Of a DNA stretch of 64,000 nucleotides, positions 1,416 to 31,654 are shown in pieces. The translations under genes and the position numbers were made by a program. Each line of letters begins with the position of its first letter. Position 1 is the stretch's first letter. Below the pieces are notes generated by a model. The model worked only from the letters and a program-made list of their open reading frames with translations. It was not told where the DNA came from and ran no database searches. Origin of the DNA: Geosiphon pyriformis uo1 (taxonomy: Eukaryota > Fungi > Glomeromycota); the NCBI GenBank assembly GCA_016748015.1, contig JAAOMT010000352.1:124001-188000 (forward strand). The letters run 5' to 3'.

Positions 1416-3163
1416 ATAAACAAAAAGAGTATTATTTGCTATAACCAAAACAGTTGGAGCAAATAAACTTGGAAAATTTAGATTTACTTTAACATATACA
1501 ACTCAAAATACTACTTAATAATTTTACTGACATCTTTATAAGTAAAAATAAATTCAGTAGAATTGACATTATTCAGCACCAGATCAAAACTAGAAATGCA
1601 ATATCAATTAAACAAAGAACATACAAAGTACCACCTACCAGTCATAAAATTATCTGATAAAAAATCAATCATATGTTAGACAATGGGTTAATTCAACTAT
1701 CAATAAGTCTATGGTTATCACTAGTTGTACTTATCCAAAAAAAGAATAAAAAAATTCATTTTTGTATAGACTACTAAAAATTCAATAGTGTAATATATAG
1801 AGACAGCTACCCAACTCCATAAATTCAGAAATTATTTAATGCTTTTGGAAGAAAAAAATAATTCTTTACATTGAACTTAGACAGTAGTTATTGGCAAGTA
1901 GTTATAAATTTAAATAACAAAGAAAAAACAGTATTTACAACCAGAGAAAAGAATTTTGAATTTGATATTATGTCATTTAGCTTAACCAATGCTCTAATTA
2001 TTTTTCAACAGCTTATGAAAATTGTTTATACTGAATTGTTATAGAAATTTATAATGGTCTACTTAGATAACACCAATATGTTTTTAAAAACATTTGATAA
2101 TTATTTCTATTATTTCCAACAAGTATTCAAAAGATTAAGAAAAGTTGAATTAAAATTAAATGCAACCAAATACTTCTTTGGCAAAATTAAACTCAAGTTT
2201 TTGGAACATATTGTAAATAAAAATAGCATAAAAACAAATCCAGACAAGATTAAGATAGTCAAAAACTTTTTAGTATCAATAAATCTTATAGAATTAAAAA
2301 CATTCTTGGAATCTGCTAGATATTATCACTGCTTTATTCAAAACTTCTCCAAATTGGCTCAACTACTTCACCAGTTTCAAGCCAAGAACATTAAATATAA
2401 ATAAACTGAAAACCAAAAAAAGCTTTTAATATCTTAAAAAAAAAGCTCATTTAAGCTTTAGTATTAATCTATCTAAATCATAATAAGCCATTTATTATTA
2501 TTACTGATACATTTGGTTAAACATTAAGAGTTATATTGTCACAAAAAAGAGCTGATAAATAAAAACATTTAATAGTATATGCTAGTCAAAATTTGAGTTT
2601 AGCCAAAAAAAATTATAAAACTCCAGCATTAAAATACTTAGCTATCTATTAGGCTGTTATCAAATAGAAAAAATACTTGAGTTAGAAGTTTGATATGTAT
2701 ATTAATCACAAAAGATTGATATTAATTCAGAAGCAAAAATTTGGAGATAATTATCATACAAGATAGAAAATAGAACTATTATTATTTAATTATATTATAT
2801 ATTATAAAAAAAAAAAAACAGAAAAGCTAACAACTTGCCATAAATGAAATAAATTTAAAAACATTTTAACTCAAAATATAACAAAAAATAAATACACAAA
2901 AATATTAACAACTTCAATATTATATTAATATTTAATAGTTCAATAAGAAATTATTTCAAAAAAAACAAAACAATATTAAACAATCAAAATATTTTATTAC
3001 TTACTAAAATATACTATATTAGAAAAACAAAAAAGATCCAGACCAATCATTTAAAGTAATTACAAAACCAGAAAAAGAAACAATATTGTTTAATATATAC
3101 TCAAATCAAACTGCAGAACATTTTCATATAGAAGCAATCATAGAAAAAACCAGAAAAAAATAC
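1416..3163 (+). pseudogene. pol: Family B RT, RNase H and integrase N-terminus, decayed
   Basis: ORF 2054-2404 VYLDNTN (YLDD-derived), LKFLEHIV; colinear with 35210-37940; cut by an A LTR at 3164. Confidence 0.9.
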
Positions 3164-3840
3164 TGTTATGATTAAAACCCACACTTTTTATTAATTATCA
3201 CATGTATTAGCCACTAATATTATATAATTAACCATTCTATTTTTAGATAGTAATTATTGACCTGATTATTGACTTGACTATTGACCTGGTTGTTGACCAC
3301 TTTAAATAGCTATATAAGTAATAAATCTCTTAGTTATAGAAAAATATGATCAAAGTAATAAAATAAAATCTATTATTAATTATTTCCTTTTATATCACTT
3401 ATTTCTTTTTCTCTATCTTCAAGTATCTAAACATCTTAGAATAAAAGATTACTTGTTGGCATTCACATATCTTATTTTTTTCCCTTCTTAATTTGTATTT
3501 TTAGAATTAGCCTGAAAAGTAATTGTTTGCTCTTGTGATTTATTGAATAAAAAAATAATTAAAAAGCACAATGATATTTGTTATTGATTCTAAAAATTAT
3601 TGAGTTGAGACATAAAATAATAGCAGTAATATTATCTTGTTGACAATTATGAACTATTTCTCTACCTTCAGATTTCCAGAAAAGATTTACAACTATGATT
3701 TTTATAAGACTGATTATGTACATTAAATCTTTACTTATTTAATTTGCTTACCTATTGTAATTCTTTCTTTGATTATTTCTATTATCCTACAATTCTGTTC
3801 TTCTTTGCTATCTGTTAGCTTGTTACTCCAACTCATAACA
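3164..3840 (+). repeat. Family A 5' LTR
   Basis: TGTTATG...CATAACA, homologous to 17201-17866, followed by PBS and gag. Confidence 0.9.
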
Positions 3841-3899: not shown

Positions 3900-6066
3900 A
3901 TTATTTATACTTGTTACAACAATCAGAAAAACACTTTGAAGCACACAACAAAAACAATCTAAATTTTATTGAATTCAATTTTTTGCTCTTCTGCTTGATT
4001 TGCTTTCTTATTAAAGAACAATTTAGTAGACAATTTCAAGATTTTTGGAACTGGTTTTTGAATGAATATTCAGCTGGAATCTATATAGTCTATATAATTT
4101 ATTACTTTAACCAAGCTTATTTTAAAGACAGCTTTGAAGAAAAAAATAACAGCATCAATTAGCTTTTATATTTCATAACTTTTGAACAACAGCTCTCTAA
4201 TTTTGAATACTTGAATCACCAAATTCACATCTGAATTGCTGCCCACCAGTTAGCTAAAACTTCCTTTGAAACAGAAAAAAAAGTTATTAAACTGCTCTTG
4301 TTTTTAATTTCTTTTTAAGTAAATTAGAACATTTTACACAAACAGCTATTTCTAAACCAATGGCTAATGACCCCATACAACAAAACATTTTGGCCACTTT
4401 CCAAGACATACAAACTGTTTTAGGGCAAAGAAATAACACTCCACTATTTTTATTTAGAGGTGATATACAAAACCCAATTAAATAGTTAGATGATTTTGAA
4501 AGAGCAATCACTGCCAATTAATATAATACTGAGTATAAGTTTCAAATTGTTAGTGGCTACCTCCAAGACTCTTCTGCTACTTGGTTTTTACAAAAAACTA
4601 ATGCTGGTGCTCACCAAAAAAACATTAGATAAACACCAACAAATACTGAAAAAGAAAACATTTCTTTTACAATCCAGTTTGAAACTAAATTTAGAACTCC
4701 TATCTTAATTTCAAAATGGCATATGAAATTAAAAAGAAGAATTTAAGGTTCTAGTAAAATTGTAACTGAGTATGCCAAAGCAATTAGAAAATTAATCAAG
4801 CAAGTAGACTTTGAAAGGAACTAAACAGAAGAGCAAAAAATTCATTCTTTTACAAAAGGGTTGAAAACTAATCTTTTATATGTTTTTTGGCCCCTTTTGG
4901 CTTCAAAAAATAATCCAACAATAAATATGGTTATTGAACTTGCCAACAAATTAAAGACAACCAAAGAATGTATTTGGGATCCACACTTCCAGTTTTTGCT
5001 CTTGTCTCTATTATGGCTTCTGTTCCTTAAATGGCTGCTACTTTTTTTGTTGCCCAAACTCAAAACCCAAATAAACAGTTAATAGACAGACTCACAGCCA
5101 ATCTTGTTTGATTACTGGAACTCTTAACCCAAACAGTCAGAGATAACCAGCAATTACAAAGATTCAGATTTGAATCCTATTTTAATTAGCCCCAGCAACT
5201 CTCTTATTAAAAACAACAAAATTGTGGTCCACCCATGTGTTATTACTGTGGATTAACTGAACATTTTTTCAGAAATTGCAACAATTCTTCTCTGTTTTTT
5301 TCAGCTCCAAAAAACAATAACAATTAAAACAACAAAACCATCAACAACAATATTCCCAATCAAAAATCCAATCATGCCAACATCAATTTCTTTGGAGAGG
5401 ATTTTCTAGTTGAAGCCACTATTTATTAGCCTTTAAACTGATAGGCACACCTCCAAAGAATAAGAGTACAAGCCAATCAGAAGAAAACTCTTTTTATGCT
5501 TTTAACTTAACTAATAATAATCATGACATAAATGAACTAGCAATCAACACTTTTGAATCAACAAGAAAAAAAAAAAGGCCAAAATTAATTTTTTTCTGAA
5601 CCTAAATAAAGCATCTACATCAACTGCTGATAACAATAAGCCACCAAAAACTAAAGTTTTTAAGAATCTTTTAAAGCTGGAATTCCCAAAAATTGTACAA
5701 AAATCTGGTCTTTATTCTATTGTCAAAAATCTTATAAAAACCCCAGTTCACATTATTTTTGGCCAGTTAATGACCCATTCACAATTCAGAAAAGACCTTT
5801 GCAAATCCTTGATCCCAAAGAAGAAAACACCAAAAACTAACAAGCATCTTTGTCAAGCTGAACTTATTAACAACAACAATATTACTTCTCTGATTTGCAA
5901 AGCCCAAGTGGCTACTTTATTAATCTGATCTTAGATAGTAGATTATCTGTTAGTGTTATTGCCAAATATTTCCTTAAAGCAATTGGCAGAAAGATTGATA
6001 AACCATTAACCAGACTTATGACCAATATACATAATAACAAAAAAAAAGGCTTGATATTGCCAAAGC
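3900..6066 (+). pseudogene. gag: Family A gag and protease, 3'-truncated
   Basis: Colinear with 11135-13100; zinc knuckle near 5235-5280; LILDS protease motif near 5925. Confidence 0.9.
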
Positions 6067-7082: not shown

Positions 7083-7927
7083 TATTATAGGTGATTATTT
7101 GGGGTCTCAAATCAAATAACAAACTCATAATTTGGTGTTAATTCATTTGATGACATTGGTAATATCTGTAAGTTGTTAGTATCTGAAAGTTTTGTTTAAA
7201 TTCTTTGTATAATGGACAGAGATTTCCTAATTGTTTTATCTGTAGCTTTCTGAAACCACAATTCCATTAAATTTCTTTCTTAGTGTGATGGCTGGTAATC
7301 CTTCTGGTAAGCTATTCTCAATTAAGTGTTTTACTTTTATTTTTGGGTCTTTTATCAGTTACTTATATCTTGACATTAGTATTTTTGCATGTTAATCCTT
7401 TTTAATCAAGTTAGTAATCTAATAAACCAAAACAGAAAGAAAATCAAATAAAGAAATAGAATAAAAGAAAAAGAAAGAAATTAGCCAAAACAATGAATAT
7501 TAGTATTTCATCAATAGTCTTGATCAATCTTTATTGTTTCAGTATGGTCAAATATGGGTTATTATCAACATAAAGTATTGATAGTAAAGAGTGGATTAAG
7601 ATAGCAAATAGTTATTTTATTGATATTTGTGATTTGTAGAATTATTTAAATAAAATCTAAACTAAGAGGTCTCTCTTTTCTACTTCTAATACTACTGTTA
7701 TATATACATAATTGAGATTCCTCAATTTTTCAATTTTTCACCTCAAGAATTCTGGAATTCTTGAAATCTTGCAATTCCTTTGAAAGAAATTTTGGAATTC
7801 TGAAATCCTGCAATTTCTCATATAAAAATCCTGAAATTTCTGGAATCCTGAAATTCCACATTTACTATGGCTACTTTTGATTGGCTAATTTATATGCTAA
7901 TATACTTCTTATATTCTATAAGTAACA
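7083..7927 (-). repeat. Family B 3' LTR
   Basis: Direct repeat of 24648-25485; adjoins the PPT. Confidence 0.93.
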
Positions 7928-7949
7928 TTATTCTCTTATTTTTAATATT

Positions 7950-8640
7950 GAGCTCTATTGAGATCTCCTAATTCTAACTCTCTGTCTTTAAGTATTTCTT
8001 GAACTTTTTTTTCAAGAATTACTTGTGTTATTTTGTTCTGTAATTTTTTGAATTGGACATTGGTTATTTTTTTTATTTGGTTAATAGTAATAGTGTTTAT
8101 TACAAGATTAAATAAGATTTCTAGTTGGTTTTGAAATCCAATTTATAATCAATAAATGGCTTGTGCTTGTGTGGTTAGATTGTTTTTTTCTCACAAATTG
8201 TTTAAGTTGTTGTAAAATTTCTAGATTGAATAATCACTTTGTCTTATCTGTATATAAGTTTTGGATATTTAGATGTTGTTCCAAATAGAAATAACAAAAG
8301 TTTTTTGGAAATTCTTGTATCTACCACTTCCAAGTTTCTTTGGTTAATTCTTAATATAGAGTGACACTTATTGGCTCTTTTATTGCCAATTTTACTTTTA
8401 GAATTATTTTGTTGATGGTATTTTCTGGTTTCTTCTGTACTTTGTATTGGTGTATTTTTTTGGTATTTCTGTATTGAATGGTTTGTTGGTTGATAGTAAT
8501 TTCTATATTTTATTGTTGCATTAATTGAAAAAGTTGTTGTGTTAGCAAGTAAATCTTGTCAGTAATTTTTATTTTTCTGATATCTCCCATTGTATCTATT
8601 ATGTCTTTATATATTCTTTTGGTTGATTAATTTGATGTGT
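7950..8640 (-). pseudogene. Family B ORF-X (post-integrase accessory ORF), disrupted
   Basis: Homologous to 39043-39680; reads ...ELTKETWKW.IQEFPKNFCYFYLEQHLNIQ... Confidence 0.7.
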
Positions 8641-10001
8641 TTGTGTCAATGATAATGATTGGTTCTAGATTTTGTAAAATCTCATCTGGTCGAACTAGTA
8701 TTTTTTGTACTCTCAATTGTGAAATATTACTGGTAAATAATAATGCTATATTATAATATAGTTTCAATTAATCTTTATGTACTGCTTTGGTTAAAATTTT
8801 GTTGTTCAACCTTAATTTATAAGCTCTATTTCCTAAAATTTTTTCTATGTGAAATGGTTCATTCCATTTGGGATCAAATTTTCTACTCCATTGTTTTTCC
8901 ACTTTGGTATGATATAAAAGTACTTTGTCTCCAATCCTGAATTCAATTAGTTTATTTAGTAGTTGGTTGTTATGTTTTTTTTTTTGTTTTTTTTGTGACT
9001 TTTGGATGTTATCAGCTGCTTTTTGTCATTTGTTTTCTAGAGTTTTTATCAAGTCATATGTTCTTCTTAATAATATTTCTTAAAAATTGTCTTCTGTTAT
9101 TGGTTCCATTGGATATGTATTGACTTTTATTTCAACTGGTAATGTTAATATTCTACCATATACCAATTCAAATAGTATTGCTTGTATAGTGTCTTGTTTC
9201 ATTGTTTGATAAGCAAATAATACTGATGGTATACATAAATTCCAAGTTTTTTTGGCTGATTTTGACAATTGCTTTATACAATGTTCTATTAAATCTTTCT
9301 ACTAACCCATTGGTTTGTGGATAATATGATAATAATAATGGTCTTTTTATTCCAAATCTTTGACTTAATTCTGCCAATGTTCTATTTACAAAATGAGTTC
9401 TTTGGTTTAATAATAGTTCTTTTGGACATCTATGTTGACAAATTAGATCTTGATGAATGAATTCTACAATGGATTTTGCATCTGCTTTTTGAATGGCTTT
9501 TGCTTCTGGCCATTTAGTAAGATAATCCATGGCTACTACAATATATCTGTTTTCTCTGCTGGTTATTGTTAATAGTCCAACTAAGTTAATTCTAATGTAA
9601 TTAAATAGTTGTTCCACTTTAATTGGTCTTAATAGTTCACTTGGTTTTGTTCCTTCTCTTCTCTGACAAGCATCATAATTTTGAACATATTGGATAATGT
9701 CTAGATATATTGATGGCCAGTAATATCTTTTTTTGGTTTTTTCTATTGTTGCTTCTTTGTGGAAATGTTCTGCTGTTGAATTTGAGTGCATGTTGAACAG
9801 TATTGTTTCTCTTTTTGGTTCTGTAATTACTTTGATTGGTTGATCTAAATTTCTTCTATTCTTTTGATAAAGTATACTTTGATGAGTGATAAAATATTTT
9901 GATTGTTGTTTTATGCTGTTTCATTTTTTTTAAGATAATTTCTCCTTGAACTGTTAGGTATCTATATAATACTGGAGTTGTTGATATTTTTGTGTATTCA
10001 T
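8640..10001 (-). pseudogene. Family B integrase, own ATG at 10001
   Basis: ORF 9168-9791: H..H..C..C remnant, DYLTKWPEA, YPQTNGLVERFN; C-terminal KFDPKWNEPF-like (GPY/F) motif. Confidence 0.9.
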
Positions 10002-10095
10002 CTTTTGTTATATTTTTGGATTAAAATGTTTTTAGCTTTGTCTCATTTATGACAATTCATCAGCATTTCTATTCTCTTTTCCCTTTTTATAGTGT

Positions 10096-10741
10096 TGTTA
10101 CAGTTGAAACACATAGTTTTTATTAATTATTACATGTATTAGCCACTGATGTCATATAATTAGCCACCCTATTTTTAGATAGTGATCATTGACCTGATCA
10201 ATGACCTGACTGTTGACCTGATCATTGACCTGATCATTGACCTGATCAATGACCTGATCATTGACCTGATCATTAACCTGATCATTGACCTGATTGTTGA
10301 CCTGGTCGTTGACCACTTTAGACAGCTATATAAGTGATGATTCTCTCAGCTGTAGAAAGACATGATCAAAGTAACAAAATAAACAATATCAATTACTTCC
10401 TCTCATAATCACTTATTCCCCTTTCCTTACCTTCAAGTATCTACTTGTTGGCATTCACATACCTTATCTTTTCCCCTTCTTGATTTGTATTTGTTAGAAT
10501 TAGCCTGAGAAGCAATTGGCTTGCTCTTGTAATTCATTGAATAAAGAAACGATTGAAAAGTACAACGATACCTGTTATTGATTCTAAGAATTGCCGAGTT
10601 GAGGCATAAAATAATAGCAGCAGTGTTATCTTGTTGACAATCACAGACTATTCCTCTACCTTCAGATTTAAGAAAAGATTAGCGACTGTGATTTTTATGA
10701 GACTGATCACGCACATTGAATTCCTACTTATTCAATTTGCT
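10096..10741 (+). repeat. Family A 5' LTR (3' end lost in the assembly gap)
   Basis: Near-identical to 17201-17774 apart from transitions and tandem-array length. Confidence 0.93.
10190..10314 (+). repeat. 12-bp tandem array (TGACCTGATCAT)n in U3, just upstream of TATATAA
   Basis: About 10 units read directly; TATA-like GCTATATAAG at ~10325. Confidence 0.9.
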
Positions 10742-11134
10742 NNNNNNNNNNNNNNNNNNNNNNNNNNNNNNNNNNNNNNNNNNNNNNNNNNNNNNNNNNN
10801 NNNNNNNNNNNNNNNNNNNNNNNNNNNNNNNNNNNNNNNNNNNNNNNNNNNNNNNNNNNNNNNNNNNNNNNNNNNNNNNNNNNNNNNNNNNNNNNNNNNN
10901 NNNNNNNNNNNNNNNNNNNNNNNNNNNNNNNNNNNNNNNNNNNNNNNNNNNNNNNNNNNNNNNNNNNNNNNNNNNNNNNNNNNNNNNNNNNNNNNNNNNN
11001 NNNNNNNNNNNNNNNNNNNNNNNNNNNNNNNNNNNNNNNNNNNNNNNNNNNNNNNNNNNNNNNNNNNNNNNNNNNNNNNNNNNNNNNNNNNNNNNNNNNN
11101 NNNNNNNNNNNNNNNNNNNNNNNNNNNNNNNNNN
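10742..11134. other. Assembly gap (393 N)
   Basis: Run of N; size is close to the missing LTR end, PBS and leader judged from copy 3750-4100. Confidence 0.99.
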
Positions 11135-12472
11135 TATTACTTTGACCAAGCTTATTTTGAAAACGACTTTGAAGAAAGAAACAACAGTATCAATCAGCTC
11201 TTATATTCTGCAACCTTTGAACAACAGCCCCCTGATTTCGAATATCTGAATCATCAAATCCACATTTGGATTGCTGCCCATCAAGCAACTGAAACTCCCT
11301 TTGAAACAGAAGAAGAAAGCTACCAAACTGCCTCTGTTTTTGATCTTTTATCAAGCGAATCAGACTCGTCTACACAAACAGTTACCCCTGAACCAATGGC
11401 TAATGACCTCATGCAAGCAAACATTCTGGCCACCCTCCAAAGTATACAAACTGCTTTAGGGCAAAGAAACAACACCCCAATATCATTATTTAGAGATGAT
11501 GCACAAGATCCAATTAAATGGTTGAATGACTTTGAAAGAGCCACTACAGCCAATCAATATGATGATGAGTACAAGTTCCAAATTGTTGGTGGCTACTTTC
11601 AAGGATCCCCTGCTATCTGGTTCTTACAAGAAACAGATGCCAATGCCCAGCAATGAATTGTTAGATGGACACCAGCAAATGTGGAAGAAATCAACACTTT
11701 TTTCACTACCCAGTTTGAAAACAAGTTCAGAACCCCAATATTAATATCAAAATGGCATATGGAATTGGAAAAAAAAAACCAAGGTCCCAGTGAAGTTGTA
11801 ACCGAATACGCCAAAGCAATCAGAAAATTAATCAAATGAGTAGACACTGGAAGAAATTGGACAGAAGAGCAGAAAATTCACTCCTTCACAAAAGGATTAA
11901 GAACTGATCTATTGTATGCTCTTTGGCTCCTCCTGGCCCTGAAAAATAATCTCACCATAGATATGGCCATTGAATTAGCACAAAGAATTGAAGACAACCA
12001 AAGGATGCACTTGGGATCCACACTATCAGTTTTTGCTCCTGTTCCTGTCATGGCTTCTGCCCCTCAAATGGCTGCTACTTCTTTTGCCACTTACACTTAA
12101 GATCCAAATGAACAGTTAATAGACAGACTCACAGCAAATCTTGCCTGGTTATTAGAACTCTTAGCCCAAGCAGTCAGTGAAAATCAGCAACTACAAAGAC
12201 CCAGATTTGAACCATGTTTCAATCAGCCCCAGCAACCACCTTATTAAAGACAACAAAATCATGGCCCACCTGTATGTTATCACTGTGGATTAACTGAACA
12301 CTTTTCAAGAGATTGCAACAATCCTCCACCAGTCCCCAGAAACAATGATGCTCAGAACAACAGGATCAACAACAACAATGTGCCCAACCAAAGACCCAAT
12401 CATGCCAACATCAATTTCTTTGGAGAGGATCCCCTAGTTAAAGCCACTGTTTATTAGCCTTTAAACTGGTAG
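11135..12472 (+). pseudogene. gag: Family A gag (capsid-like domain and CCHC zinc knuckle), with premature stops
   Basis: FRDDAQDPIKWLNDFE...; CYHCGLTEHFSRDC at ~12275-12316. Confidence 0.9.
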
Positions 12473-15154
12473 GCGCACCTTCAAAGGGTGAGAGTGCAAG
12501 CCAACCAGAAGAAAACCCCTTTTACATTTTTAACTTAACTGATGATGACCATGACATGGATGAATTAGCAATCAACCTCTCTGAATCCACAAGAAAGAAG
12601 AAAAAAGCCAAAGTTGATTTCGTTCTAGACCCCAATAAAGCTTTTACATCAACTGCTAACAACAATGAGCCCCCAAAAGCCAAAGTTTTCAAGAACTCTC
12701 CAAAGTTAGAACCCCCAGAAATAGTACAAAAATCCGGTTCCTATTCTGTTGTCAAAGACCTTATGAAAACCCCAGCACATATAACCTTTGGCCAATTAAT
12801 GACCCATCCACAATTCAGAAAAGATCTTCGCAAATCCCTGATTCCAAAGAAAAAGACACCCAAAACCAACAAACGCTCTCGCCAAGCTAGACTTGCTGAC
12901 AATAGCAATGTTACTCCTCTAATTTGTAAAGCCCAAGTGGCTGGCTACTTCATTGATTTGATCCTAGACAGTGGATCATCTGTTAGTGTTATTGCCAAAC
13001 ACTTTCTTGAAGCAATTGGCAGAAAAATTGATGAATCATCCACACAACCAATGACCAATGTGCATGGTAATAAGAAAAAAGGGCTTGGCATAGCCAAAGC
13101 TATTCCTGTCTGCATCAATGGCATCAGCATTGAAACTGATATGGAAGTGTCTGAAGCAAAAGAATACACCATCATTGTTGGCAATGAATGGCTCAAGAAA
13201 GCAAAGGCTTTGCTTGATTATGAACTCTGTGAACTAACCATTAGATGTGATGAAAAACCCATTGTGGTTAAGTGTTGCCATTGAACAACTCCCCCAGTAC
13301 CCAAGCAGAGCCCAGAAGAAAATGAATCAGATGAATCAGATGATGAAGAAAGTGAGGAAGAAGAAGAACAAGAAGAACAAAAAAGAAACTGCTGAACTTG
13401 CCTATACCATCTTCACTAGCAATGGCAAACCACTGGATAATGTCAAGGCAAATAAAAAAGGAATTATTGTCAATGGCAAGCTGATCTGCTGGTCTTATTA
13501 TGACATGCTCAGAAGAACCTTTGACAGAAAGCCAGACAAGAAAGCCAAATACAGTTATTGGTAGCATGGTCCTTGTGCCCAGTACTGGTGCAACAAACCA
13601 TTGTATTTTCCTAGCGATGAATGCATGTCCTGCCTGATCTATTACAAAGATTGGGAACTAATCAGCTTGATACCCCGAGAAGAAATAAAAGAAGTCCAAA
13701 AGTCCTTTGAAAACGAACCACCTGAAATCCAATCATTGGTTGTAGAACAAAGAGAACCCTCTTCAGAAAAAAGAAAAGTAGACATTGAAAACCTGCTGGC
13801 TTGAAACAGCCCAGTTATCTCAAAAGAAGGTGAACCTCCTGGACATACACATGTGATACAACACACCATCATCACCAGAGAAACTTGCCCCATCCATTTG
13901 AAGCCCTATCAATCCAACCGGCACAATGATGAGTTTATCAAAAAGGAAATAACCCAAATGAAAACTCTTGGATTCATACAGAAAACCAAGAGTGAATGGG
14001 CATTCCCAGTTGTAGTGGTATTTAAGAAAGGAAGAACCCTATGCTTTTGTGTTGACTATTGCCAATTAAATGTCATTACTGAAAGAGACATGTACCCACT
14101 TCCCAAGATTGATGCAATGCTAGACCAATTCCATGGTGCTACTTTCTTCTCAACCATTGACTTAATTGCTGGATTCTGGCAAGTAGAGATGGATCCAGAA
14201 AGCAGAAAAAAAACTGCCTTCATCACCAAGTATGGTACCTACAAATTCACAGTCATGTTTTTTGGTCTCACAAATGCTCCTCCCACATTTCAACGCTTAA
14301 TGGACAAAGTATTTGAATCAGTAAAAGAAAACTTTGTTCTAGTCTACTTGAACGACATAATGGTATACTCAAAAACATGGGATGAACACCTTGAACATCT
14401 GCAAAAGGTTTTTAACCTCTTTAGAAATGCTGGTCTCAAGATCAATCCAATCAAATCATTCTTTGGACGTCAATTCACCCAGTTTCTTGGCCATCTTATT
14501 ACAAAAGATGGAATCTTCCTTGATCCAGCCAAAATTGAAAAAGTTCAAAACATTAGACAACCAATGAATGTTTATGAACTACGCTCTTTTCTTGGTTTGG
14601 CCTCTTATTATCGCAAGTTTGTCAAGGATTTCTTCAAAATCACTGCTCCTCTCAATCAGCTACTTAGGAAAAACATCAATTATTACTGGGGCACTCATCA
14701 ACAAAAAGCATTTGAAATTCTGAAGGAAAAACTGGTTACAGAACCCATCCTTATGCAACCTAATTTGGATCAATTTTTTATCCTTCACACTGATGCATCT
14801 GGCTATGGACTTGGTGCTGTTTTTTTCCAAAAAGATGAAGATAACAGAGAACACGCCGTAGCATATGCCAGTAAAACTCTCACACCAGTAGAAAGAAACT
14901 ACTCAGTTACTAAGCAGGAATGCTTAGTAGTAGTTTGGGCTATCAGCTACTGGGACAAATATCTTAAGAGTGTGAAATTTTTGGTGGTAACAGATCACCA
15001 AGCTTTGGTTTGGCTACGTAACAAAAGAAACCTGGAACATAAATGGATAACTCGCTGAATACTCCACTTGGATGAATTTGACTATGACATTCAACACCGC
15101 AAAGGAGCTAATCATCAAAACGCCGATGCTCTCTCCAGACTTATTATCCAGTGA
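12460..15154 (+). pseudogene. pol: Family A protease, acidic/Cys-rich linker, RT and RNase H
   Basis: LILDSGS protease motif; RT VDY.QLN, YPLPKID, FGLTNAP, YLND (YLDD in the copy at 29382); RNase H TDASGYG, VTDHQAL, NADALSR, then TGA TAG TAA. Confidence 0.93.
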
Positions 15155-15213
15155 TAGTAAAACCCTCTCAAACCAAACCAACTTAATTATTTGTAACTCC
15201 CCCACAAACAAAC

Positions 15214-16528
15214 ATGATAATGGACTTGGACAACTACTCTGCTTTAATGAAATTTTTGGGTAAAGGACAATATCTGCCAGACTATATTCGACAGCAAAGA
15301 GAACATTTGCACAAACAATCAAATTTCTATTTGATTTGCCAGAACCAGTTATATAAAAGAAATAAAAAAGATCCTGACCACCCCCAGAGAGTTATTAGAT
15401 TTGAAGAAAGAGAAATTGTAATCTACAATATGCACACTGATCTATTAGCTGGACACTTTGGAAAAACAAAAACAATTCAGAAAACTTTAGCTCGCTATTA
15501 TTGGCCTACCTTGGGAAAAGACATTGCTGAATACATCAAAACCTGTAATACCTGCCAAAAAAGAGGAAAACCCAATTGCAAGAAAGATATCCGTCCAATC
15601 TCTGTTGGTTAACCATTTAATAGAATTGGTATAGATGTTGTTGGACCTTTAACAGTAACTTCTGATGGCAACAGATACATTATCACAGCTACCGACTATC
15701 TTACAAAGTGGATAGAAGCAAAAGCCACTCCAGATCAAACAGCAGTCTCAATTGCCAATTTTATTTATGAAGATATTATCTGTCACCACAGCTGCCCCAA
15801 AGAACTTTTATCTGATAAAGAAAGAGCTTTTCTCAGTACACTGGTTGAAGAACTTTGCAGAAAAATGGAAATACGTCATAAACTCTCTTCCCCTTATCAC
15901 TCCCAAACAAATGGCCTAGTAGAACGTTTTAATAGAACACTATGTAAAACCTTAGCCAAAACCAGTGAAGAAACCAACCTATGGGACAAAGTATTGCCTT
16001 CAGCCTTGTTTGCTTACAAAACTGTGAATTATGACATAACAAGTTATGAATCCTTTTATTTGCTCTATGGACGAATGACAACTCTACCAATAGAAACAGA
16101 TATAGAAACAATACCTTTAGAAGAAATAACAATAGGAGATTACAAAGACATTTTGCAAAGAAGACTTGATACCATTCTTGATTCATTAGTAGAAGCACGG
16201 ATAATTGCCTTTGAAAAGATAAAACAGGTTCAAGAGAAGCTCAAAAAGAAAAAGACCTATAAAACACTTTCCTTAAGTGTTGGTAACTTAGTTTTGGAAT
16301 ACCATTCAGACAGAGACAATGTCTATGGTGATAAATTCTCTAGCTGGTGAAAAGGACCTTTTATAGTCAACAAAGTTTTGAACAATGGTTCTTATATCTT
16401 ACAAGATCAATATGGAACAATATTCAGTGATCACCCTGTTTATGGCACATGACTCAAGAAATATTACAAACGACTTGATTGGTTATCTGTTGTGGTAATA
16501 CCGACCCAAATGATCAGCAAAAATTAGA
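15214..16528 (+). pseudogene. Family A integrase, stand-alone ORF with internal stops
   Basis: HTDLLAGH...CNTC, IGIDVVGP, LSDK, NGLVERFN, W.GPF; no chromodomain seen. Confidence 0.92.
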
Positions 16529-16574
16529 TATAAATAAATGCACCATTCCCAAAACAGAGATATCTTCAATCAAC

Positions 16575-17231
16575 ATGAACAATTATTTCCTGGATCAAAA
16601 CATTCAAAACGCTTTCTATACTTTCCATGAGTACTGAATCAAGAACTATCCAAATGCTACTCTGACTATCGGAAAACAAACCACTATAACAGACAACAGT
16701 GGAATTCACACTGTTATTAGACCAAAGAAAACAACTACCAGAAGAGAAAGAATTGGTGGCAAAATGGATAAATACCTGCTGGAAAGCATAACAGCAGTGA
16801 TATTTTTATCTTTCAGCACAATTGGAAAAACAATACAAGAAATCTTGCCCATAAACAAAAACTTGTCATATGGAAGACAACTAGAACTCTATGGTCGTCT
16901 TAGTGAAATCATAGAAGACATGAAGCTCATAAAGAAAACAACTTCAGAGATACAAGTGGAAATTTTGGGCATTATACAATTGGATGTCCCAAGAGTTTTG
17001 ACCATTGCTAGAAGAGCCAGAACTCTAATACAAAGATTTGGTCTCTTGAATACAAAGCTTATTTTGCCTCAAGTACTATATACTCTATTCACAAAAGACT
17101 TCAACAAACTAGTTAGTTTTGAGTTAGACAAAACCCTTCACATAGACTATCCCATAAATAGTTTGATTTCGCCGGAGCTCAATCTCTTTGGAAAGGATGA
17201 TGTTATGGTTGAAATACATAGTTTTTATTAA
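16575..17231 (+). CDS. Family A ORF-X, unknown ~218-aa protein (one TGG>TGA stop at 16635) reading into the 3' LTR
   Basis: ATG 16575 is in frame with ORF 16764-17231; the second copy has TGG at the same codon (~41323). Confidence 0.75.
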
Positions 17232-17866
17232 TTATCACATGTATTAGCCATTGATGTCATATAATTAGCCACCCTATTTTTAGATAGTGATTGTTGACCT
17301 AATCAATAACCTGACTGTTGACCTGATCATTGACCTGGTCGTTGACCATTTTAGACAGCTATATAAGTGATGATTCCCTCAGCTGTAGAAAGACATGATC
17401 AAAGTAACAAAATAAACAATATTAATTACTTCCTCTCATAATCGCTTATTCCCCTTTCCTTACCTTCAAGTATCTACTTGTTGGCATTCACATACCTTAT
17501 CTTTTCCCCTTCTTAATTTGTATTTGTTAGAATTAGCCTAAGAAGCAATTGGCTTGCTCTTGTAATTCATTGAATAAAGAAATGATTGAAAAATACAACG
17601 ATACCTGTTATTGATTCTAAAAATCGCCGAGTTGAGGCATAGAATAATAGCAGCAGTGTTATCTTGTTGACAATCACGGACTATTCCTCTACCTTCAAAT
17701 TTAAGAAAAGATTAGCGACTGTGATTTTTATGAGACTAATCATGCACATTGAATTCCTACTTATTCAATTTGCTCCCTTATTGTAATTCTTTCTTTGTTT
17801 ATTTTCATTACCATACAATACTGTTCTCCCTTGCTATCTGTTAGCTTGTTACTCCAACCTGTAACA
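17201..17866 (+). repeat. Family A 3' LTR
   Basis: TG...CA ends, PPT upstream, 4 array units. Confidence 0.95.
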
Positions 17867-17870
17867 ATGT

Positions 17871-19240
17871 ATTGTAAAAGTGTATAATAATAGTGTTATT
17901 TTTTATTTCACATGTCAATTGTCTCCAAATTTTTGTTTCTGGATTGAAGTCAATCTTTTGTGATCTATGTGCATTTCAAATTTCTGGCTTAAGCATTTCT
18001 TCTATTTAATAACTGTCCAATAAATTGCTAAGTGTTTTAGTATGGGTGTTTCATAATTTTTTTTGGCTGGCATTAAGCTTTGGCTGGCATATGCTACTGG
18101 ATGTTCTCTTCTATCTGGTTTTTTTTGTGATAATATTACTCCTAATATTTGATCTGATGCATTAGTGGTAATAATAAATGGTTTGCTATAATCTGGATAG
18201 ATCAGTACTGGAGCTTGAATGAGCTTTTTTTTTAGTATGTTAAAAGCTTTTTGTTGTATTTTAGTCTATTTATATTGAACATTCTTGGTTTGTAGATAAT
18301 ATAATAATTGAGCCAGTTTGAAAAAGTTTTTGATAAAGTAATAATAGTATCCTGCGAATTCCAAGAATACTTGTAATTCAGTCAGGTTGGTGAGTACTAA
18401 AAAAGACTTAACTATTTCAATTTTATCTGGATCTGTTTTAATGCTCTTTTTGTTTATGACATATCTTAAAAACTTGAGTTCTGTCTTGTCAAAGAAACAT
18501 TTAATTGCATTTAGTTTCAATTCTGCTCTTTTTAGTCTTTTAAACATTTGCTAGAGATAATGAAAATAATCATCAAATGTTTTTAAGAACACATTGGTGT
18601 TATCTAAGTACACGACTACTGATTTTCATAGCAGTCTGGTGTAAACAATTTCTATTAGCTGTTGAAATGTAGTTGGTATATTGGTTAAGCCAAATGGTAT
18701 TACTTCAAATTCAAAATTTTTTTCTTTCATGGTAAATGCTATTTTCTCTTTATCTTCTGAATTCATAGCTACTTGCTAGTAACCACTATCTAGATCTAAT
18801 GTCAAGAACTATTTCTTTCCTCCAAAAGTGTCAAATAATTTCTGAATCCATGAAGTTGGATAATTGTCTTTACAAGTTACACTATTGAGTTTTCTGTAAT
18901 CCACACAAAAGTAAATTTTCTCATTTTTCTTATGAACTAGTACCACTAGTGACAATTATGGGCTCATTAATAGCTAAATTAGCCTGTTGTCAAGCATCTA
19001 ATGGATTTCTTGGCAAATAATCTCATGGCTAGCTGGTAGTATTCAGTATGTTCTTTGTTTGATTGACATTGCATCTTTAGTCTTGATTTGGTGCTGAATT
19101 ATGTTAGTTCTGCCAAATTCATTTTCACTTGTAAAAATGTCAATAAAATTGTTAAGTGATATTTTAAGTTGTATATGTTGAAGTGGGTCTAAGTTTCCCA
19201 TGTTTATTTGTTTCAATTGTTTTGGTTGGAGCAAATAACA
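17871..19240 (-). pseudogene. pol: Family B RT and RNase H
   Basis: ORF 18266-18547; VYLDNTN, PFGLTN, TTDASD; continues at 10095 across the nested A element. Confidence 0.9.
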
Positions 19241-19619
19241 TTTATTCTATTCATAGATGGTTTGTGATATTATGTCGATGTATCTACACAGTTGTGAAAA
19301 ATTTAGAATGAAGTTTGGTGGTTGGTTTTCAATTTCAGTGGTTAAATATTCAATGATAGTTCTTTTTGGTATCTCAATAACATTTTTCGTGTTGTTGTAA
19401 ATAGAAATTTTGATGTGACTGTGGTTTTTGGCTGATATGTGTAGATTGACTAATCCAATCCTTCCTGATTTACAAACAGTTGGTTCCACTTCAAAATTTT
19501 GTGCCTGATCTTTTACTTTTTTTTTTATTGTTAACATATGTCTGTTATATGGTAAAATAGAAATTGTTTGACAGATAGAAATAATTTTTTTTTTGTCAAC
19601 AATTTTTTCCTCTGCCATG

Positions 19620-20050
19620 TTAACTGGTACATCTATTCTATCTATGGATCTGAATCCACTTATCTCTCTTGCTGTTATCCCTAATTCTTTCCAGTTTCCT
19701 ACTAATATTAACTGAGCTATTTTAACCAGAGGCAGAAATATTGTCTGTGCTATTTTTTTGTTTGGTTCTATGATGTAGGTCTTTTCTGAATTATTTTGTA
19801 GTATTGCAATAATATTTTCCACATATTTTGTGTCAATTATTTCTCCTCTTATATTAATCTTTTTTTTCACTAAACTACTTCTCAATACTAGTTGAACTAT
19901 TGTTGTTGCTGAAATTTTTAGTGCTATTTTAAGATCAATGCTTGTACACAAGTGTGGTTCTAATTTGATGGCTTTTTTTCTAGGATATCTTAGATCAAAC
20001 CCTGCATTAATATCATGTACATGTTCTAACATGATATTTTCATTATTATC
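19620..20050 (-). CDS. dut: Trimeric dUTPase domain in family B pol
   Basis: Motifs AGFDL, RSSL, G.IID..Y, KIAQ and REISGFRS (RG..GFGS) in order in ORF 19247-20032. Confidence 0.9.
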
Positions 20051-20249
20051 ATTAAACTATTTAAGTTTCTGCTCCTTAGTGAGGTCAGGAAGTGTGATAT
20101 ATTGTTCTAAGTTTGAATTAAAGTTTGAACTGCTGCTATTGTTATTGCTATTTTGAACAGAACTGGAACTGTAGTTGTTATTGTCATTGGGGTTTGAATT
20201 GGAATTGAACTGTGATTTCAATTCCAATGTGCAGCTGCTGATTGGTTTG

Positions 20250-21530
20250 TGTTTTTTTGGAATCATGTAAATCATGTACAGTAGTGGATTGTAAACAATG
20301 TTATAATCATTACAATATTTGAAATCACTGGAAATTAGGCAATATTTGCACAGTCTCGCATTTAGTTGTTTTAACTACTGTTCTTGCTCTTTTCAGGTAA
20401 GTGCTAAGTTTTGATAATGTTTATAGAACTCTTCTAGACCAGCTTTAATGTCCAAAAAAGCATCAGGATAATTGTTTTTTATTTCCAGGATCTTACTGAA
20501 TAAAGCATTTTCTATTTTGGCATTGACCATTTGCCAGATTTCATCTTTGTTATATGGATAGCCATCCAAGTGAGAAATCACTTGGTGCCATGTGGCAGTA
20601 ATAGATGTGCTACAACTAACCCAGTCACTTATGAAGATTGTGTACTGACATGAAGCATCACATATTTCTCCTCAACCAGGAATGTTATTCCATATTTTTT
20701 TGTTGAGTAACTGTTTTCCACAAGCAAAACATGGTTTATTGTTCCACTTGTTTTGTTATTTTGGATAGCCATACCATTTTCTGTGACACAGCTTGCAGTA
20801 ATAGTGGGTTCACATTCAGTAATCTTTGTTGGGCACTATTTAAGCTCCCATGGAAGAAAGTTTCTTGCCACAATCTTGGCATTTGAGTGGAATGTATGGT
20901 AGTTCTTTGATAGATTCATGTGAGTATGATTATTCCCAGCCACTGGTTATTTCTTCTGTGACTATAAGTTTTTCATGTTTGTCCTCTTCTTTTCCTTTCC
21001 TTTTGTTATTTCAAAAGAGTACTGGTGGCAGTTCATTGTGATTGGTGTTAGCCCACAAGACTTGGTAGGCTTTCCAGGTAGGTTTATTTACTTCTTCTTT
21101 CTCAAATTTGATTAATAGTGTTGGTATAGTAGTGGTCTTAAAATGTCCATAAGTGGCTGGTATACATGTGTGTTGGCCATTTTGGCTGAGCTGTAGCTCT
21201 TGGGTGTTCCAGTCAAGCACAGTATTGGTCTTGGACAGCCAGTTGTTACTAATGAAAGCTTGGTACTAAGTAGCTTCCATTACCAATACCTTGATTGGTA
21301 TTATGATGCTGTTGAGTTCAAATGGAAAGTCATCTATTTCACTGATTGGGGTTTTTGTCATTCCATCTGCAGTAATGATTTGGGCATTGGCAGCATGATT
21401 AACTCAGTGATCTAATTGGTTTATAAATTGTTTTGTGATGATACTGCCTGCTGAATCACTGTCTAATATTAGTTTAATGGGGTAACCATCAACTTTGGCA
21501 TCTGTATACATTGCTGTGATGAATTTTGCA
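20250..21530 (-). pseudogene. pol: Family B protease followed by a Cys-rich domain
   Basis: KLILDSDS (DSG-derived); CQDC, YYCKLC, CFAC, LCKYC...YCNDY clusters. Confidence 0.85.
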
Positions 21531-22099
21531 TCAAAAGCAGCTTTACTGAATAATAGTATGCTAGTTGATTCTACTTTAAATAGAAAAATTGCTGCAAGGG
21601 ATTCGTTTTCAGTAACAGTTGCTAGTGGAATATTGTTGATAAGTGGTTTCTGGTTGATTTCCAAGTGGTTGAGTAAGGTGTCTTTGGGGTTAACTAGAAG
21701 ACTTAAATAGTTTTGAAAATTTGGGTTTTGAAAGTACCTGGTTTCCAAACTCTGCTGGCATGATCCAGATTGTTGGTTGAAAGAACTAGGAATCAGTTAA
21801 TAGACTACTATTGCCAATTTTCAGTTTTGTTGGGTCATTTTTGGCCTTTGGTTCTTATGTAACATTGGAGCTGGGTTTTGTGACAGTGTTCAAATCAGTT
21901 GTAGTTGATAAATTATTTGTGGCTGCAGAGTTTGATAAATTACTGATACTGTTGACTAATATATTGGAGATACATATATTGGTTGCTGTGTTATTTGAGT
22001 GTAATAAGGTTGATATTGATCCTAATTTAATTAATAGTTTGGAGTTTGAAATCTGTGATCAGGGTTTTGGTATTGATTTTCTGATCATAAACTGCTATA

Positions 22100-24646
22100 A
22101 AAACAGCAGTTGGCTTTTAGGTAATCTTATTTATCATAATTGTGGCATGTACATGTCTCAGTCTGCCACAATTAATTGGTTGATGACAATGATGGCCACA
22201 ACTGATTTTGAAAGCGATTTGGGACTCCTTAATTGTTATGTTATTATGAGGTTTGATAAATTGTGTAATTGTCAACTAAGTATTTTTTCAGTTTTTGATT
22301 AATTGAATTACTGAATTGTTTCCATTTGGAATCCAAGTTAGATGATTTGTTTATCACTAAATTGACAGCTTGGGCATAGTTGGCTTTGAGTTCAGCTGCT
22401 TTAAAATCTCTGGCATTTGTAATTATGGTTTAAAAATCTACTGGGTATAATGAACATATGCGTTACAGGATGTTATTGCACAGATCTCTAATGAATTAAT
22501 TTAAAATTTGCAGCACTGTGAAATAATTGGCTTGTATTGCCTGAATTTGGCACAAATTTTTATGGAAGTGTTCTAGAAAAGTAGTAACTGCTTCAGTTTT
22601 TTTTTGCTTAATTGTGGTGAAAGTATTGGCTAAGCAATTAATACTATTATTGTTGCTAAAATATCTCAAGAACTCTGTTTTAAATGCATTGAAGATGATT
22701 GGTTTGTTGACCAAGCTTTAATACCATGAATCAGCAGTATCTTGTAAAAAGTATGGAATGATCTGTAGGGCTTTAGTGTCATCTCAATTGTTAGCAGTGA
22801 TTGCTTTGGCGACATTATTGAACCAAGCTTGGACATTATTCTTTTTGTCAGTAAATTTTTCTAATTTGGTAATAGAAATGTATGCTATTGGTACTAGTAG
22901 TAGTTGTTGTTGTTGTTGTGGTTGAGGTTGCTGTTGTAGTGGCTGCTAAGATAGTGGTAACTATTGTTGTTGCTGTTTGTTGATTGGTGGGACTGGTGAT
23001 GGATCAATTATGATTACTAAAGATAAGTTTTGAAGAATAATAGGAGTGGTGTTTGGATTATTCTGCTTTTGCTGAGTTGGAATGATCAGGATTTGAATTT
23101 CCATGTTTTCTGAAATCAGATTTTGACTATTAATTTCTTGATCGCTATCTTCTTTTTCCTCTGAGTTAGTTATCTCTCAAGGATTAGTGGCTCCAAAATC
23201 TGGTTGTGGTGGTGATAATCAAATTCCTAATGATTTTGGAAATCACAATTTAAATCCTTCAAAATAATTACCATACATTCCTAATAATTCTGCTTTCTTT
23301 TGTTTACTTTGAAATAAGATTCTGTTCAATAATATTGTCACACTTGCTGTCAATATGTCTATTATATTAATAGTGCTTCCAGTGTTACAGTTCAAGAATT
23401 TAATAGAAATTATAAATAATATAAATTAGCCAATCATGAAATAGCACAGCAACAATTTATAAAAAGAAATGATTTACAATAGTAGCAAGCACTATTGTGC
23501 AAAAGCAACAAGTATTATTTAGAAATAATAAAAATAGAGTATTACAAGACATTATTTTGTAAAACAATAATTATATATATATACAATAGTTTTTAATGAT
23601 GAAGAAAAAAACAGTTTCAACTCAAAGCAACAAATATTTAAATAAAATCTTATTTAAAAAGAATTAATAAAAATAATAAATTGAATGAACATCATAATTA
23701 CAAGATTAACAATAAAATTTACATACCCTCTCTAGCAAATAAAACTATTATTTCATCTTTGAATCCTTTAAAAGAATAATCCCTGATCAAGATTATTCAT
23801 GTGGTTACTAATTAAATTGAAAAAACTTTATTATATACTTAAAGAAATCAAGAAAAGACCATTAACATTCTATGTTTCTAGATTAGAAAAACACATTAGA
23901 CAATTGCAAGAATAGCCTCAGAGAAGACCTCAGACAGTGGGTAGATTTTAGATTAGCCTCTGGAAAGGAGTACACAATATACAAAGACAACTAGAATTAA
24001 AAATGAAAAGACTTATATCACAACATTAAGAGAAAATCTTCAATACATTATTATTAATATTCAACACATAAAATAAAGAAACTCACGAGAGACTGATTGC
24101 AATTAAAACAGGATATCAACAATTAAAATATACCAAAAAAACACTTCCATAACACTAAGTGTATGGTGATATGATGGATTGGCAGGTAAGTTAAATTTTT
24201 GTTTCTTCCAAGTAAATAATTGTATTTGCTTTGGAATTTTTGCTGGTGTTTATAACCTTCCTTTTTTTTTGTTTACAAAAGTGATAAGAAATCTTTGTTT
24301 AGTGTATTTTTTCAATTTTCCTGTTTATTTCTGTAATTATTGTTGCAAATAGATGATTCTGTGGTAATGTAATGTTTTGAAGTAGTTTACTGAAGAAATT
24401 GTTAAAGGCAGATTTTGGATTTTCTTGTCCTCTCAAGTAATATACAATTTTTTCATTGACATAACAATTGAAAGCTGATTTTGTTGGCCAATTATTATTT
24501 AATTCCAGATGACTTTTGTAGTACTGAAATAAGAATTTTGCAAATCCCAAGTGGTTTGTCTCTGTTTTTTTTAATTCTACCACTGTTTCATATGGTTGTT
24601 GCTGGTGGTGGTTTTTTGTTAGATTAAACCTCACAGAAAGCACCAA
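22100..24646 (-). pseudogene. gag: Family B gag with a long N-terminal extension, split by a solo LTR
   Basis: IAYISITKLEKFTD...FKTEFLRYFSNNNSIN; ORF 24299-24646 matches 31656-32084 and 52904-53344. Confidence 0.85.
23383..24154. repeat. Solo LTR of a fourth type (D)
   Basis: TGTTACAG...CCATAACA, 772 bp; host gag resumes on both sides; degenerate TSD CCAG/CTAA. Confidence 0.75.
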
Positions 24647-29700: not shown

Positions 29701-30910
29701 TAGGAAAAATGTCAATTATTACTGGAGCACACATCAGCAAAAAGTTTTTGAAATTCTGAAGAAAAAACTTATTACTGAACCAATCCTTAAACAATCTGAT
29801 CTGAACCAATCTTTTATCTTGCACACTGATACATCTGGCTATGAACTTGGTGCTGTTCTCTCACAAAAAAATGAAAATAACAGGAAACATGCTATAGCAC
29901 ATGTCAGTAGAACTCTTACACCAGCAGAAAAAAACTATTTAATTATTGAACAAGAATGCTTAGCAGTAGTATGAACTACTAGTTATTGAGACCAATATCT
30001 TTTTGGTGTAAAATTCTTAGTGGTAACAGATCATCAAGTCTGAGTTTGACTGTGTAACAAAAAGAAGCTGGAACATAAATGGATAACTTACTGAATTATT
30101 TATTTGGATGAATTCAACTATAATATTCAACACCACAAAGGAGCAAATCATCAAAACACTAATGCTCTCTTTAGACTAACTATCCAGTAATAGTACAATC
30201 TTTTAACCAAACCAACTTAATTATTAATAACTCTCTTATAAACAAACACAATAATAGACTTGGACAATTACTCTGCCTTAATAGAATTTTTGGGTAAAGA
30301 ACAATACCCACCAGAATACACTTAACAGCAAAAAAAACATTTGTGCAAACAATCAAATTTCTATTTGATTTGTCAGAACCAGTTATATAAAAGAAATAGA
30401 AAAAATTCTGACCACCCCCAAAGAGTTATCAGATTTAAAAAAAGAGAAATTGTAATATACAACATGCACACTAATCCATTAGCTAGACACTTTAGAAAAA
30501 CAAAAACAATTCAGAAAATCTTAACTTGCTATTATTGATCTATCTTGGGAAAAGATATTACTGAATATATCAAAATCTGTCATATCTGCCAAAGAAGAAA
30601 AAAACCCAATTACAAGAAAAATATTTATCTAATCTTTGTTAATCAACTATTTGACAGAATTGGTATAGATGTTGTTAAACTTTTAATAATAACTTCTAAT
30701 GACAATAGATACATTATTACAGCTACTGACTATCTTACAAAGTGGATAAAAACAAGAGCCATTCCAGACCAAACAGCAGTCTTAATAGCCAATTTCATTT
30801 ATGAAGATATTATCTGCTGTTATGGCTACCTCAAAGAACTTTTATCTGATAAAAGAAAAGCTTTTTTTAGTATACTGGTTGAAAAACTTTGTAGAAAAAT
30901 GGAAATATGT

Positions 30911-31654
30911 TGTTACTCATAGAATATAGGAAGTATATTAGTATATAATTAGCCAATCAGAGATAGACATAGTAAATGTGAAATTCCAGGATTCCTCTTA
31001 AAGGAATTAAGAAATTTTGATTATATATATATAGCAGTAGTATTAGAAATAAAAAAAACAGATCTCTTAGTTTAGATTTCATTTAAGCAACCTTTTAATT
31101 CACAAATATTAATAAATAAGTATTTGTTTTCTCAATTTACTTTTCTACTATTAATACTCCATGTTGATAGTAACTGATACTTAACTCCACTGGAACAATA
31201 GCTTTTGATCACAGCTATTGACAAAATACTAATATTCATTGCCTTGACTTATTTTTTTTTTTTCTTTTCTTTTATTTTCTTTTCTTATTTTTTTTTATTT
31301 TATTTTCTGTCTTTGTTTATTTTTACTAACTTGATTAAAAGAATTAACATGTAAAGATACTAATGTCAGAATATAAATGACTGGTAAAAGACCCAGGAAT
31401 AAGAGTAAAACACTTGATTAAAGATAGCTTACTAGGAGAATTACTGGCCATCATGCTGAGAAAAAAATTTGATGGAATTGTGGTTCTGGGAAGCTATGGA
31501 TAAAACAATAAGTGAATCTTTGTCTATTATACAAAGAACTCAACCAAAACCTTTAGATACCAAAACTTTCAGATATTACCAATGAGATTAATTATTGAGT
31601 ACCAAGTTATGGGTTTGTTATTTGATTTGAAACTCCAAATAATTACCTGTAACA
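30911..31654 (+). repeat. Family B 5' LTR
   Basis: TGTTACTC...CTGTAACA. Confidence 0.95.

Follow-up and report, generated by a model that had tools for sequence, protein, structure and literature searches.

What has eroded the retrotransposons of Geosiphon pyriformis (Glomeromycotina), and does the erosion match any known fungal repeat defence? The question is raised by a 64,000-nucleotide stretch of contig JAAOMT010000352.1 (the window), a nest of decayed long terminal repeat (LTR) retrotransposons with a guanine-plus-cytosine (GC) content of 20-41% and a CpG observed/expected (o/e) ratio of 0.0-0.34 per 2-kb bin. Positions 10096-17866 of the window hold a Ty3/gypsy retrotransposon, whose Pfam matches, to protease, reverse transcriptase (RT), RNase H and integrase, follow the Ty3/gypsy order. 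An earlier note on this element had proposed transition-only, two-strand hypermutation with a CpG and TpC bias, caused by a defence resembling either repeat-induced point mutation (RIP) or a deaminase. Our analysis shows changes that are directional, copy-specific, strand-balanced and graded CpG > TpC > CpC > ApC > GpC. We read them as a steady, post-insertion, two-strand C>T decay, first at CpG and then at T-C-N-pyrimidine, which on balance probably results from two-layer methylation of repeats followed by deamination.

A comparison of the two LTRs of the element (visible part of the 5' LTR, 10096-10741; 3' LTR, TG...CA, 666 bp, 17201-17866; both + strand) shows 24 substitutions in 573 aligned columns, all 24 being C/T or G/A, an outcome with a chance of ~6e-5 if the transition share is two-thirds. 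Read as C>T, eight changes lie in the 5' LTR (5 G>A, 3 C>T) and 16 in the 3' LTR (8 G>A, 8 C>T). A single transversion in the blastn row for the LTRs was discarded, as it stems from a register shift inside a 12-bp tandem array. The earlier note had counted about 20 differences outside this array; the total is indeed 20, all transitions, and the contexts are 7 CpG, 8 TpC, 4 ApC and 1 CpC in place of the 7, 9 and 4 it had given. Normalised by context, the pair gives CpG 9/22, TpC 10/69, ApC 4/53, CpC 1/30 and GpC 0/30, with TpC exceeding other non-CpG cytosines (10/69 versus 5/113, p=0.025). The second LTR pair, which belongs to a nested element (30911-31654 and 39711-40577, both +), contains 87 transitions at scorable sites and 2 transversions in 737 columns (CpG 7/8, TpC 43/90, other C 37/134, p=0.003), and the two pairs pooled give TpC 53/159 against 42/247 for other non-CpG sites (p=0.0002). 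A test of context bias set beforehand as one that could refute the claim therefore left the TpC bias in place after normalisation, as a threefold preference rather than an exclusive target.

Changes after insertion on both strands are also recorded in paired sites. An ancestral CG resolved reciprocally is present as had been described (TGTTACAG / TGTTATGG), and another lies at 10187-8. The nested element is flanked by ATGT (30907-30910) and ACAT (40578-40581), a target-site duplication from ACGT; the unsplit copy still has ACGT at 15873-15876 (+), which proves the ancestral state of the site. The duplication of the 10096-17866 element itself, GTGT on the left (10092-10095, +) and ATGT on the right (17867-17870, +), differs by one G/A transition.

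The same spectrum is seen across 120 protein copies obtained with the aspartyl protease region of the element (12442-13284, +; RVP_2, E 1.4e-07), whose best 120 of 176 relatives in a protein search are all named Geosiphon pyriformis, at 57-93% identity. These copies were scored at codon positions 1 and 2 of sites with the window residue as majority in 30 or more copies and with 60% or more local identity; as they are gene models, nonsense changes and the worst-damaged copies are under-counted. Changes (with hazards) number 948/4697 at TpC (0.225), 276/2735 at CpC (0.106), 345/4177 at ApC (0.086) and 291/4432 at GpC (0.068), compared with 85/24566 for T>C (0.0035) and, among transversions, 65/15419 for C>A (0.0042), 19/15544 for C>G (0.0012), 18/20007 for T>A (0.0009) and 9/24030 for T>G (0.0004). 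The non-CpG C>T rate is thus 16-50 times that of the commonest transversion, and by site the TpC excess holds on both strands (53 TpC versus 123 other sites, p=5e-16). In all 64 window alignments with at least 300 columns there are 11027 transitions and 3507 transversions, and the differing share of C columns is 0.54-0.60 at TC(H), 0.33-0.50 in other contexts and 0.88-0.95 at CpG, these pairs being non-independent. With the young copy as reference, C>T stands at 1563/4420 and T>C at 413/7225. The codon changes that the earlier note had seen in older copies are likewise borne out (GAA>AAA in 55/147 codons, GAT>AAT in 35/84, TGG>stop in 23/39, CAA>TAA in 14/109). Its term "transition-only" fits the LTR pairs (24:0 and 87:2) but is too strong for the old copies, in which transitions lead 1.1-39 fold and distant pairs have more transversions.

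Read-derived contigs on the RT show 411 variable places, comprising 154 C>T, 114 G>A, 61 T>C, 33 A>G and 49 transversions. Among the 40 such places listed, 29 have T/A in the element at 10096-17866 and C/G in the majority. The contigs that carry the variants have ~65-100-fold depth each, and 613 of the 8952 contigs agree with the window to 99% or better, so that the differences are fixed rather than random damage; as the read run may come from the window's own sample, it tests fixity and not spread. A short read-out at 14576-14617 lists 11 of 18 C/G sites (CpG 0.72, 0.20 and 0.40; TpC 0.23, 0.15 and 0.09; others 0.03-0.11; one third-position site 0.54), and is patchy enough to carry little weight, five of the seven unlisted sites being predicted low and two (14591, 14612) predicted high.

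Outside CpG, two flanking positions have the largest effects. A log-rate model of 176 non-CpG sites (R2 0.48) gives factors of 3.6 for T at -1 (t 8.8) and 2.1 for a pyrimidine at +2 (t 6.3), with C at -1 at 1.5, a pyrimidine at -3 at 1.4 and A at +1 at 0.85; position -2 had no clear effect in this model (factor 1.19, t 1.5). A second retrotransposon family, split by insertion of the element (17867-22807, -, together with 7085-10095), serves as an independent replication set and repeats the pattern at the DNA level over 993 sites (-1 T, t 6.1; +2 T, t 5.6; +2 C, t 3.6), the mutated share being 0.47 where both -1 T and +2 T/C are present, 0.37 and 0.35 in the intermediate classes and 0.27 with neither. 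The pyrimidine at +2, which about doubles the non-CpG rate and defines the motif T-C-N-Y, is new here.

CpG sites are lost faster and without regard to their flanks. CpG o/e stands at 0.11, and three CGC codons are kept in only 11/103, 15/95 and 12/88 copies, with a hazard of ~1.0 per cytosine and about equal numbers of His and Cys replacements (43:41, 41:35 and 25:41). CpG dyads in the window copies have become TG in 169 cases and CA in 168, with the 5'-T side lost 52 times versus 60, in a test that site picking skews towards 50:50. In the second family the mutated share is 0.59, 0.59, 0.55 and 0.57 at ACG, CCG, GCG and TCG, and TCG is the least depleted CpG context (o/e 0.138 versus 0.082-0.112). 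As flanks have no effect at CpG and do have one elsewhere, the decay falls into two tiers, a flank-blind loss at CpG and a flank-sensitive loss at other cytosines.

Three other sources of the TpC bias were rejected. Hidden ancestral TCG is ruled out, as TCT (0.19) and TCC (0.15) are raised too, and an amino-acid artefact by the effect on both strands (p=3.5e-4 and 3.7e-12) and at the DNA level. A counting artefact is ruled out by distant RT relatives from another organism (L011, 164-5829, versus L013, 284-5964), in which the same count gives equal shares for TpC (294/769) and ApC (202/518). That pair differs by 832 transitions and 17 transversions, with CpC 96/106 and CpG 187/188, and in L011, L013, L014, L015 and L016 CpG o/e is 0-0.25 and CpC o/e 0.08-0.26; the distant RT-relative loci L011-L016 are hypermutated at CpG and CpC, with the 5'-T bias absent, so the count does not itself force a TpC answer. 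L014 and L016 are 100 transitions apart, mainly in TC and CA context. A repeat-rich locus, L018/L019, has a CpG o/e of 0.04, and its repeat pair (2838-3464 versus 9072-9701) differs by 68 transitions and 8 transversions, with CpG 19/20.

The changes appear to have accumulated gradually in each copy. Shared changes number 15742 against 16471 expected (0.96) and none of 7140 copy pairs has z>4, a level so near to chance that they were not inherited through active subfamilies. The load per copy rises smoothly from 0.012 to 0.23, and the TpC/other ratio is 2.5-2.9 in lightly and heavily changed copies alike. Strand skew per copy was not seen (chi2 97 on 110 df), the 120 copies gave no same-strand correlation in any of five distance classes (z within 1.7), and the changes did not cluster in 100-column bins; in four long copy pairs C>T stands at 0.31-0.42 and G>A at 0.34-0.38. 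Four data sets thus agree with the claim of post-insertion, two-strand C>T hypermutation in a context other than CpA.

In its workings the decay in Geosiphon resembles repeat mutation linked to methylation, in a different sequence context. In the reading we favour, a first layer of near-complete symmetric CG methylation, of DNMT1/DNMT5 type, would explain the flank-blind, two-sided loss of CpG, and a second layer, in which an enzyme of DIM-2 or RID type reads bases -1 and +2 and methylates part of the non-CG cytosines, would explain why flanks matter at non-CpG sites only. The methylcytosines would then lose their amino group, spontaneously or with the help of an enzyme, and with poor T:G repair the change would be fixed, gradually and in vegetative nuclei, not in bursts. 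The components have been described in other fungi: the arbuscular mycorrhizal clade is said to retain DNMT1, DNMT2, DNMT5, DIM-2 and RID (PMC8298701), R. irregularis is reported to have high CG methylation at most transposable element loci (10.1101/2021.03.30.436303), transposable elements of Phycomyces, a fungus with DIM2 and DNMT1, are described as methylated in CG and CHH contexts (PMC11258239), and mitotic C>T change in the repeats of Zymoseptoria tritici is reported to be driven by Dim2 (PMC8016269).

Several observations weigh against this reading. The layers proposed for Geosiphon are drawn from mutation spectra and from reports on other fungi, and the contexts reported for Dim2 are CpA in Z. 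tritici (PMC8016269) and CpT in Neurospora (PMC13297926), not 5'-T. In the two LTR pairs the +2 effect fails to reach significance (odds ratio 1.4, p=0.18) and is absent within the TpC class (24/74 versus 25/78); G at +2 is likewise above A in the DNA pile-ups (t 2.7-2.9), so the motif may be "not A" at that position. Among 29 changes private to the RT of the element (TpC 12/160, GpC 6/89, CpC 6/120, ApC 3/128, CpG 2/26), TpC is hardly above GpC. The skew from site picking in the dyad test belongs here too, as does one of the four long DNA pairs, in which changes on one strand follow one another, giving fewer strand runs than permuted data (100 versus 123.7 +- 7.1, p=0.002; the others, p=0.08-0.34); judging by this one pair, a weak local processivity may be present.

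The alternative that survives best, though we think it unlikely, dispenses with repeat defence. Genome-wide cytosine deamination with poor U:G repair, perhaps from weak or lost uracil excision in long-lived nuclei, would generate the changes, with CpG methylation as the top tier and T-C-N-Y arising from context-dependent repair. Change in all four 5' contexts, steadily and on both strands, is what such a failure would produce, and the seven other Glomeromycetes genomes in one survey are reported at 26.5-28.8% GC regardless of repeat share (PMC12543289). The dUTPase in the second family also speaks for it. A flank effect of chemistry alone should, however, reach CpG, with a sevenfold asymmetry predicted at two of the CGC codons, where 41:43 and 41:25 are seen. 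Related elements elsewhere show an ordinary mix of changes: related RTs of other origin, in ten clusters of 15 members (one member is named Paraglomus brasilianum), have conservative changes that go both ways, with 107 transversion-type and 68 reverse among 594, compared with 133 and 24 among 2245 in the same tally of Geosiphon copies. These clusters are a weak control because their intact frames are under selection, and they contain a faint D>N/E>K excess (58 versus 13 reverse) that favours the genome-wide account.

Improbable, to a degree beyond the preceding alternative, is true premeiotic RIP by a RID homologue with T-C-N-Y as a new target, working through numerous light rounds during cryptic sex and adding to the decay of methylated CpG. 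The outcome fits, in transition-only, two-strand, post-insertion change that wrecks reading frames, and the clade is said to have RID (PMC8298701); to that extent the label "RIP-like" was apt. Single RIP rounds should act episodically and leave strand-skewed copies, unlike the smooth load and balanced strands described above. Linked LTRs have changed no more than the internal RT (24 changes on 2 x 204 C/G, 0.059, versus at least 29/523, 0.055), and the family nevertheless attained very high copy number. Canonical RIP as known from Neurospora and other Pezizomycotina, with RID and DIM-2, likewise produces two-strand C:G>T:A change after insertion, destroyed frames and AT-rich nests, but in Geosiphon CpA is not depleted (o/e 1.26), TpA is not raised (0.77) and the host lies outside Dikarya. 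Canonical RIP was rejected, as CpA preference (+1 A, factor 0.85) and episodic strand-skewed or clustered action are both lacking in the Geosiphon copies. The composite RIP index is positive in only 2 of 126 windows scored with it, so index-based surveys would miss this decay.

Slightly less probable again is a TC-preferring DNA cytosine deaminase, APOBEC-like or of the double-strand DddA kind and derived from the host or an endosymbiont, that edits the copies. Such enzymes prefer TC > CC > AC > GC, the order observed here. The preference is only threefold, the effect at -2 is absent and one at +2 is present, and the changes do not cluster. APOBEC3-type editing acts on single-stranded complementary DNA (cDNA), prefers 5'-TC and leaves one-strand G>A changes common to both LTRs. 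Geosiphon shares the 5'-TC preference but differs in having changes on both strands and LTRs that diverged once inserted; without a one-strand G>A excess, clustering or LTR-shared changes, cDNA editing was rejected, and since the two LTRs of one element differ, the editing cannot have taken place during reverse transcription. The "deaminase-like" suggestion, in its APOBEC form, is accordingly disfavoured by the absence of strand bias, the little clustering and the change in all four 5' contexts. Geosiphon grows at the soil surface and 5'-pyrimidine contexts rank highest, but ultraviolet damage at dipyrimidines, like a sequencing or assembly artefact, is hardly credible given no CC>TT excess (odds ratio 1.19, p=0.24), change at ACA and GCA (0.084 and 0.063) with no pyrimidine neighbour, and variants fixed in the reads.

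Three further known systems invite comparison. Dim2-driven mutation in Z. tritici is reported to be more than 95% C>T, to act on transposons, to need no sexual cycle and to be linked to non-CG methylation (PMC8016269), and gradual non-CG C>T change in repeats well above background is also found here (hazard 0.07-0.23 versus at most 0.004). In that account more than 98% of changes are at CpA and CpG is spared, whereas in Geosiphon CpG is the top target, CpA is unfavoured, and 5' T and a +2 pyrimidine matter. The TpCpG hypermutation described in Pucciniomycotina resembles ours in CpG as main target and in the importance of 5' T, but partial matches to the motif are not raised in that report (PMC3318451), while in Geosiphon TpC outside CpG does change more often and a 5' T gives no advantage in CpG loss. 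This candidate was rejected on the near-equal mutation of TCG and other CpG (0.57 versus 0.55-0.59; 52 versus 60), against a factor of 3.6 at TpC(H). Masc2/Dnmt1-linked CpG decay of methylated transposons, as presented in PMC4352252, would explain the flank-blind, symmetric CpG tier, and the strong symmetric loss expected from deamination of 5-methylcytosine at CpG is found, but it leaves the non-CpG C>T excess unexplained. The signatures named in the excerpted text of PMC4352252 are CpA, CpT and CpG only.

The remaining features of the window complete the picture of the nest, in which no host gene was recognised. The rest of the 5' LTR lies inside an assembly gap of 393 N (10742-11134) that also spans the primer-binding site, and several open reading frames listed at 10610-11249 are artefacts of this gap. 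The 12-bp array has 11 copies in the 5' LTR (10183-10314, +) and 5 in the 3' LTR (17288-17347, +), and its copy number varies among copies as well (3253-3298, 41977-42118). A frame that is gag-like by position (11138-12440, +) has four stops, at 11654, 11837, 12098 and 12245; its part 11138-11653 has no Pfam match. The RT and RNase H occupy 13805-15058 (+; RVT_1, RT_RNaseH_2) and the integrase 15187-16350 (+; Integrase_H2C2, rve), with a stop at 15610 splitting the latter frame. Between integrase and 3' LTR is an extra open frame of 197 codons (16638-17231, +) with no Pfam family, and a frame of 242 codons (46493-47221, -) holds a comparable place after another integrase. An older sister copy, 80% identical, runs from 26769 to 30910 (+) and resumes at 40578-42660 beyond the nested insertion. 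Other older copies of the family are at 4100-6066 (+; gag-protease part, 79%) and 43477-45542 (-; RT part, 77%). The second family carries its dUTPase domain at 19247-20056 (-; PF00692, E 8.9e-15), and P0372, a member of the related RT clusters, is likewise named dUTPase, which is of interest beside a host rich in cytosine deamination. Searches for further copies of the element's family added none: a metagenome scan with the protease region matched 0 of 482 candidates, one with the RT gave 19 distant loci (22-53% identity), none of this family, and the best 120 matches of an RT protein search include no Geosiphon name.

RIP has been reported as undetected in G. margarita and Mucoromycotina, and a 2025 kingdom-wide screen describes it as confined to ascomycetes, with a CpA preference (PMC12543289). 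That screen includes seven Glomeromycetes, and Geosiphon does not appear in the 12 of its 19 supplements that were searched. RIP in Zoophthora has been suggested by index, with caveats (PMC10515909). A literature search, mostly of titles and outside the genome papers of the species, found no report of this pattern in Geosiphon or of a TpC signature in fungi. We put forward tentatively, as falling somewhat short of an even prospect, that Geosiphon has a mutator outside Dikarya that is targeted to repeats, is of RID/DIM-2 type, prefers T-C-N-pyrimidine, a target not described before, wears down retrotransposons without sex and escapes CpA-based RIP indices.

In a genome with a reported LTR content of 41.2% (PMC11952901), the consequences reach into annotation: many annotated "hypothetical proteins" of Geosiphon pyriformis (P0001-P0120) are decayed retrotransposon fragments, mostly with D>N and E>K changes, and the decay distorts both LTR ages and this class of proteins. 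A strong C>T mutator in an early-branching glomeromycete raises the question of whether repeat mutation predates Dikarya, and bears on whether presumed asexual fungi can sustain it in the absence of meiosis and on the roles of RID and DIM-2 homologues in the mycorrhizal clade. If the same spectrum holds in unique DNA, the finding would instead be an extreme genome-wide mutation bias, notable for the low GC of the group; if the T-C-N-pyrimidine mutator is truly targeted to repeats, it would overturn the view that the mycorrhizal lineage has no RIP-like defence.

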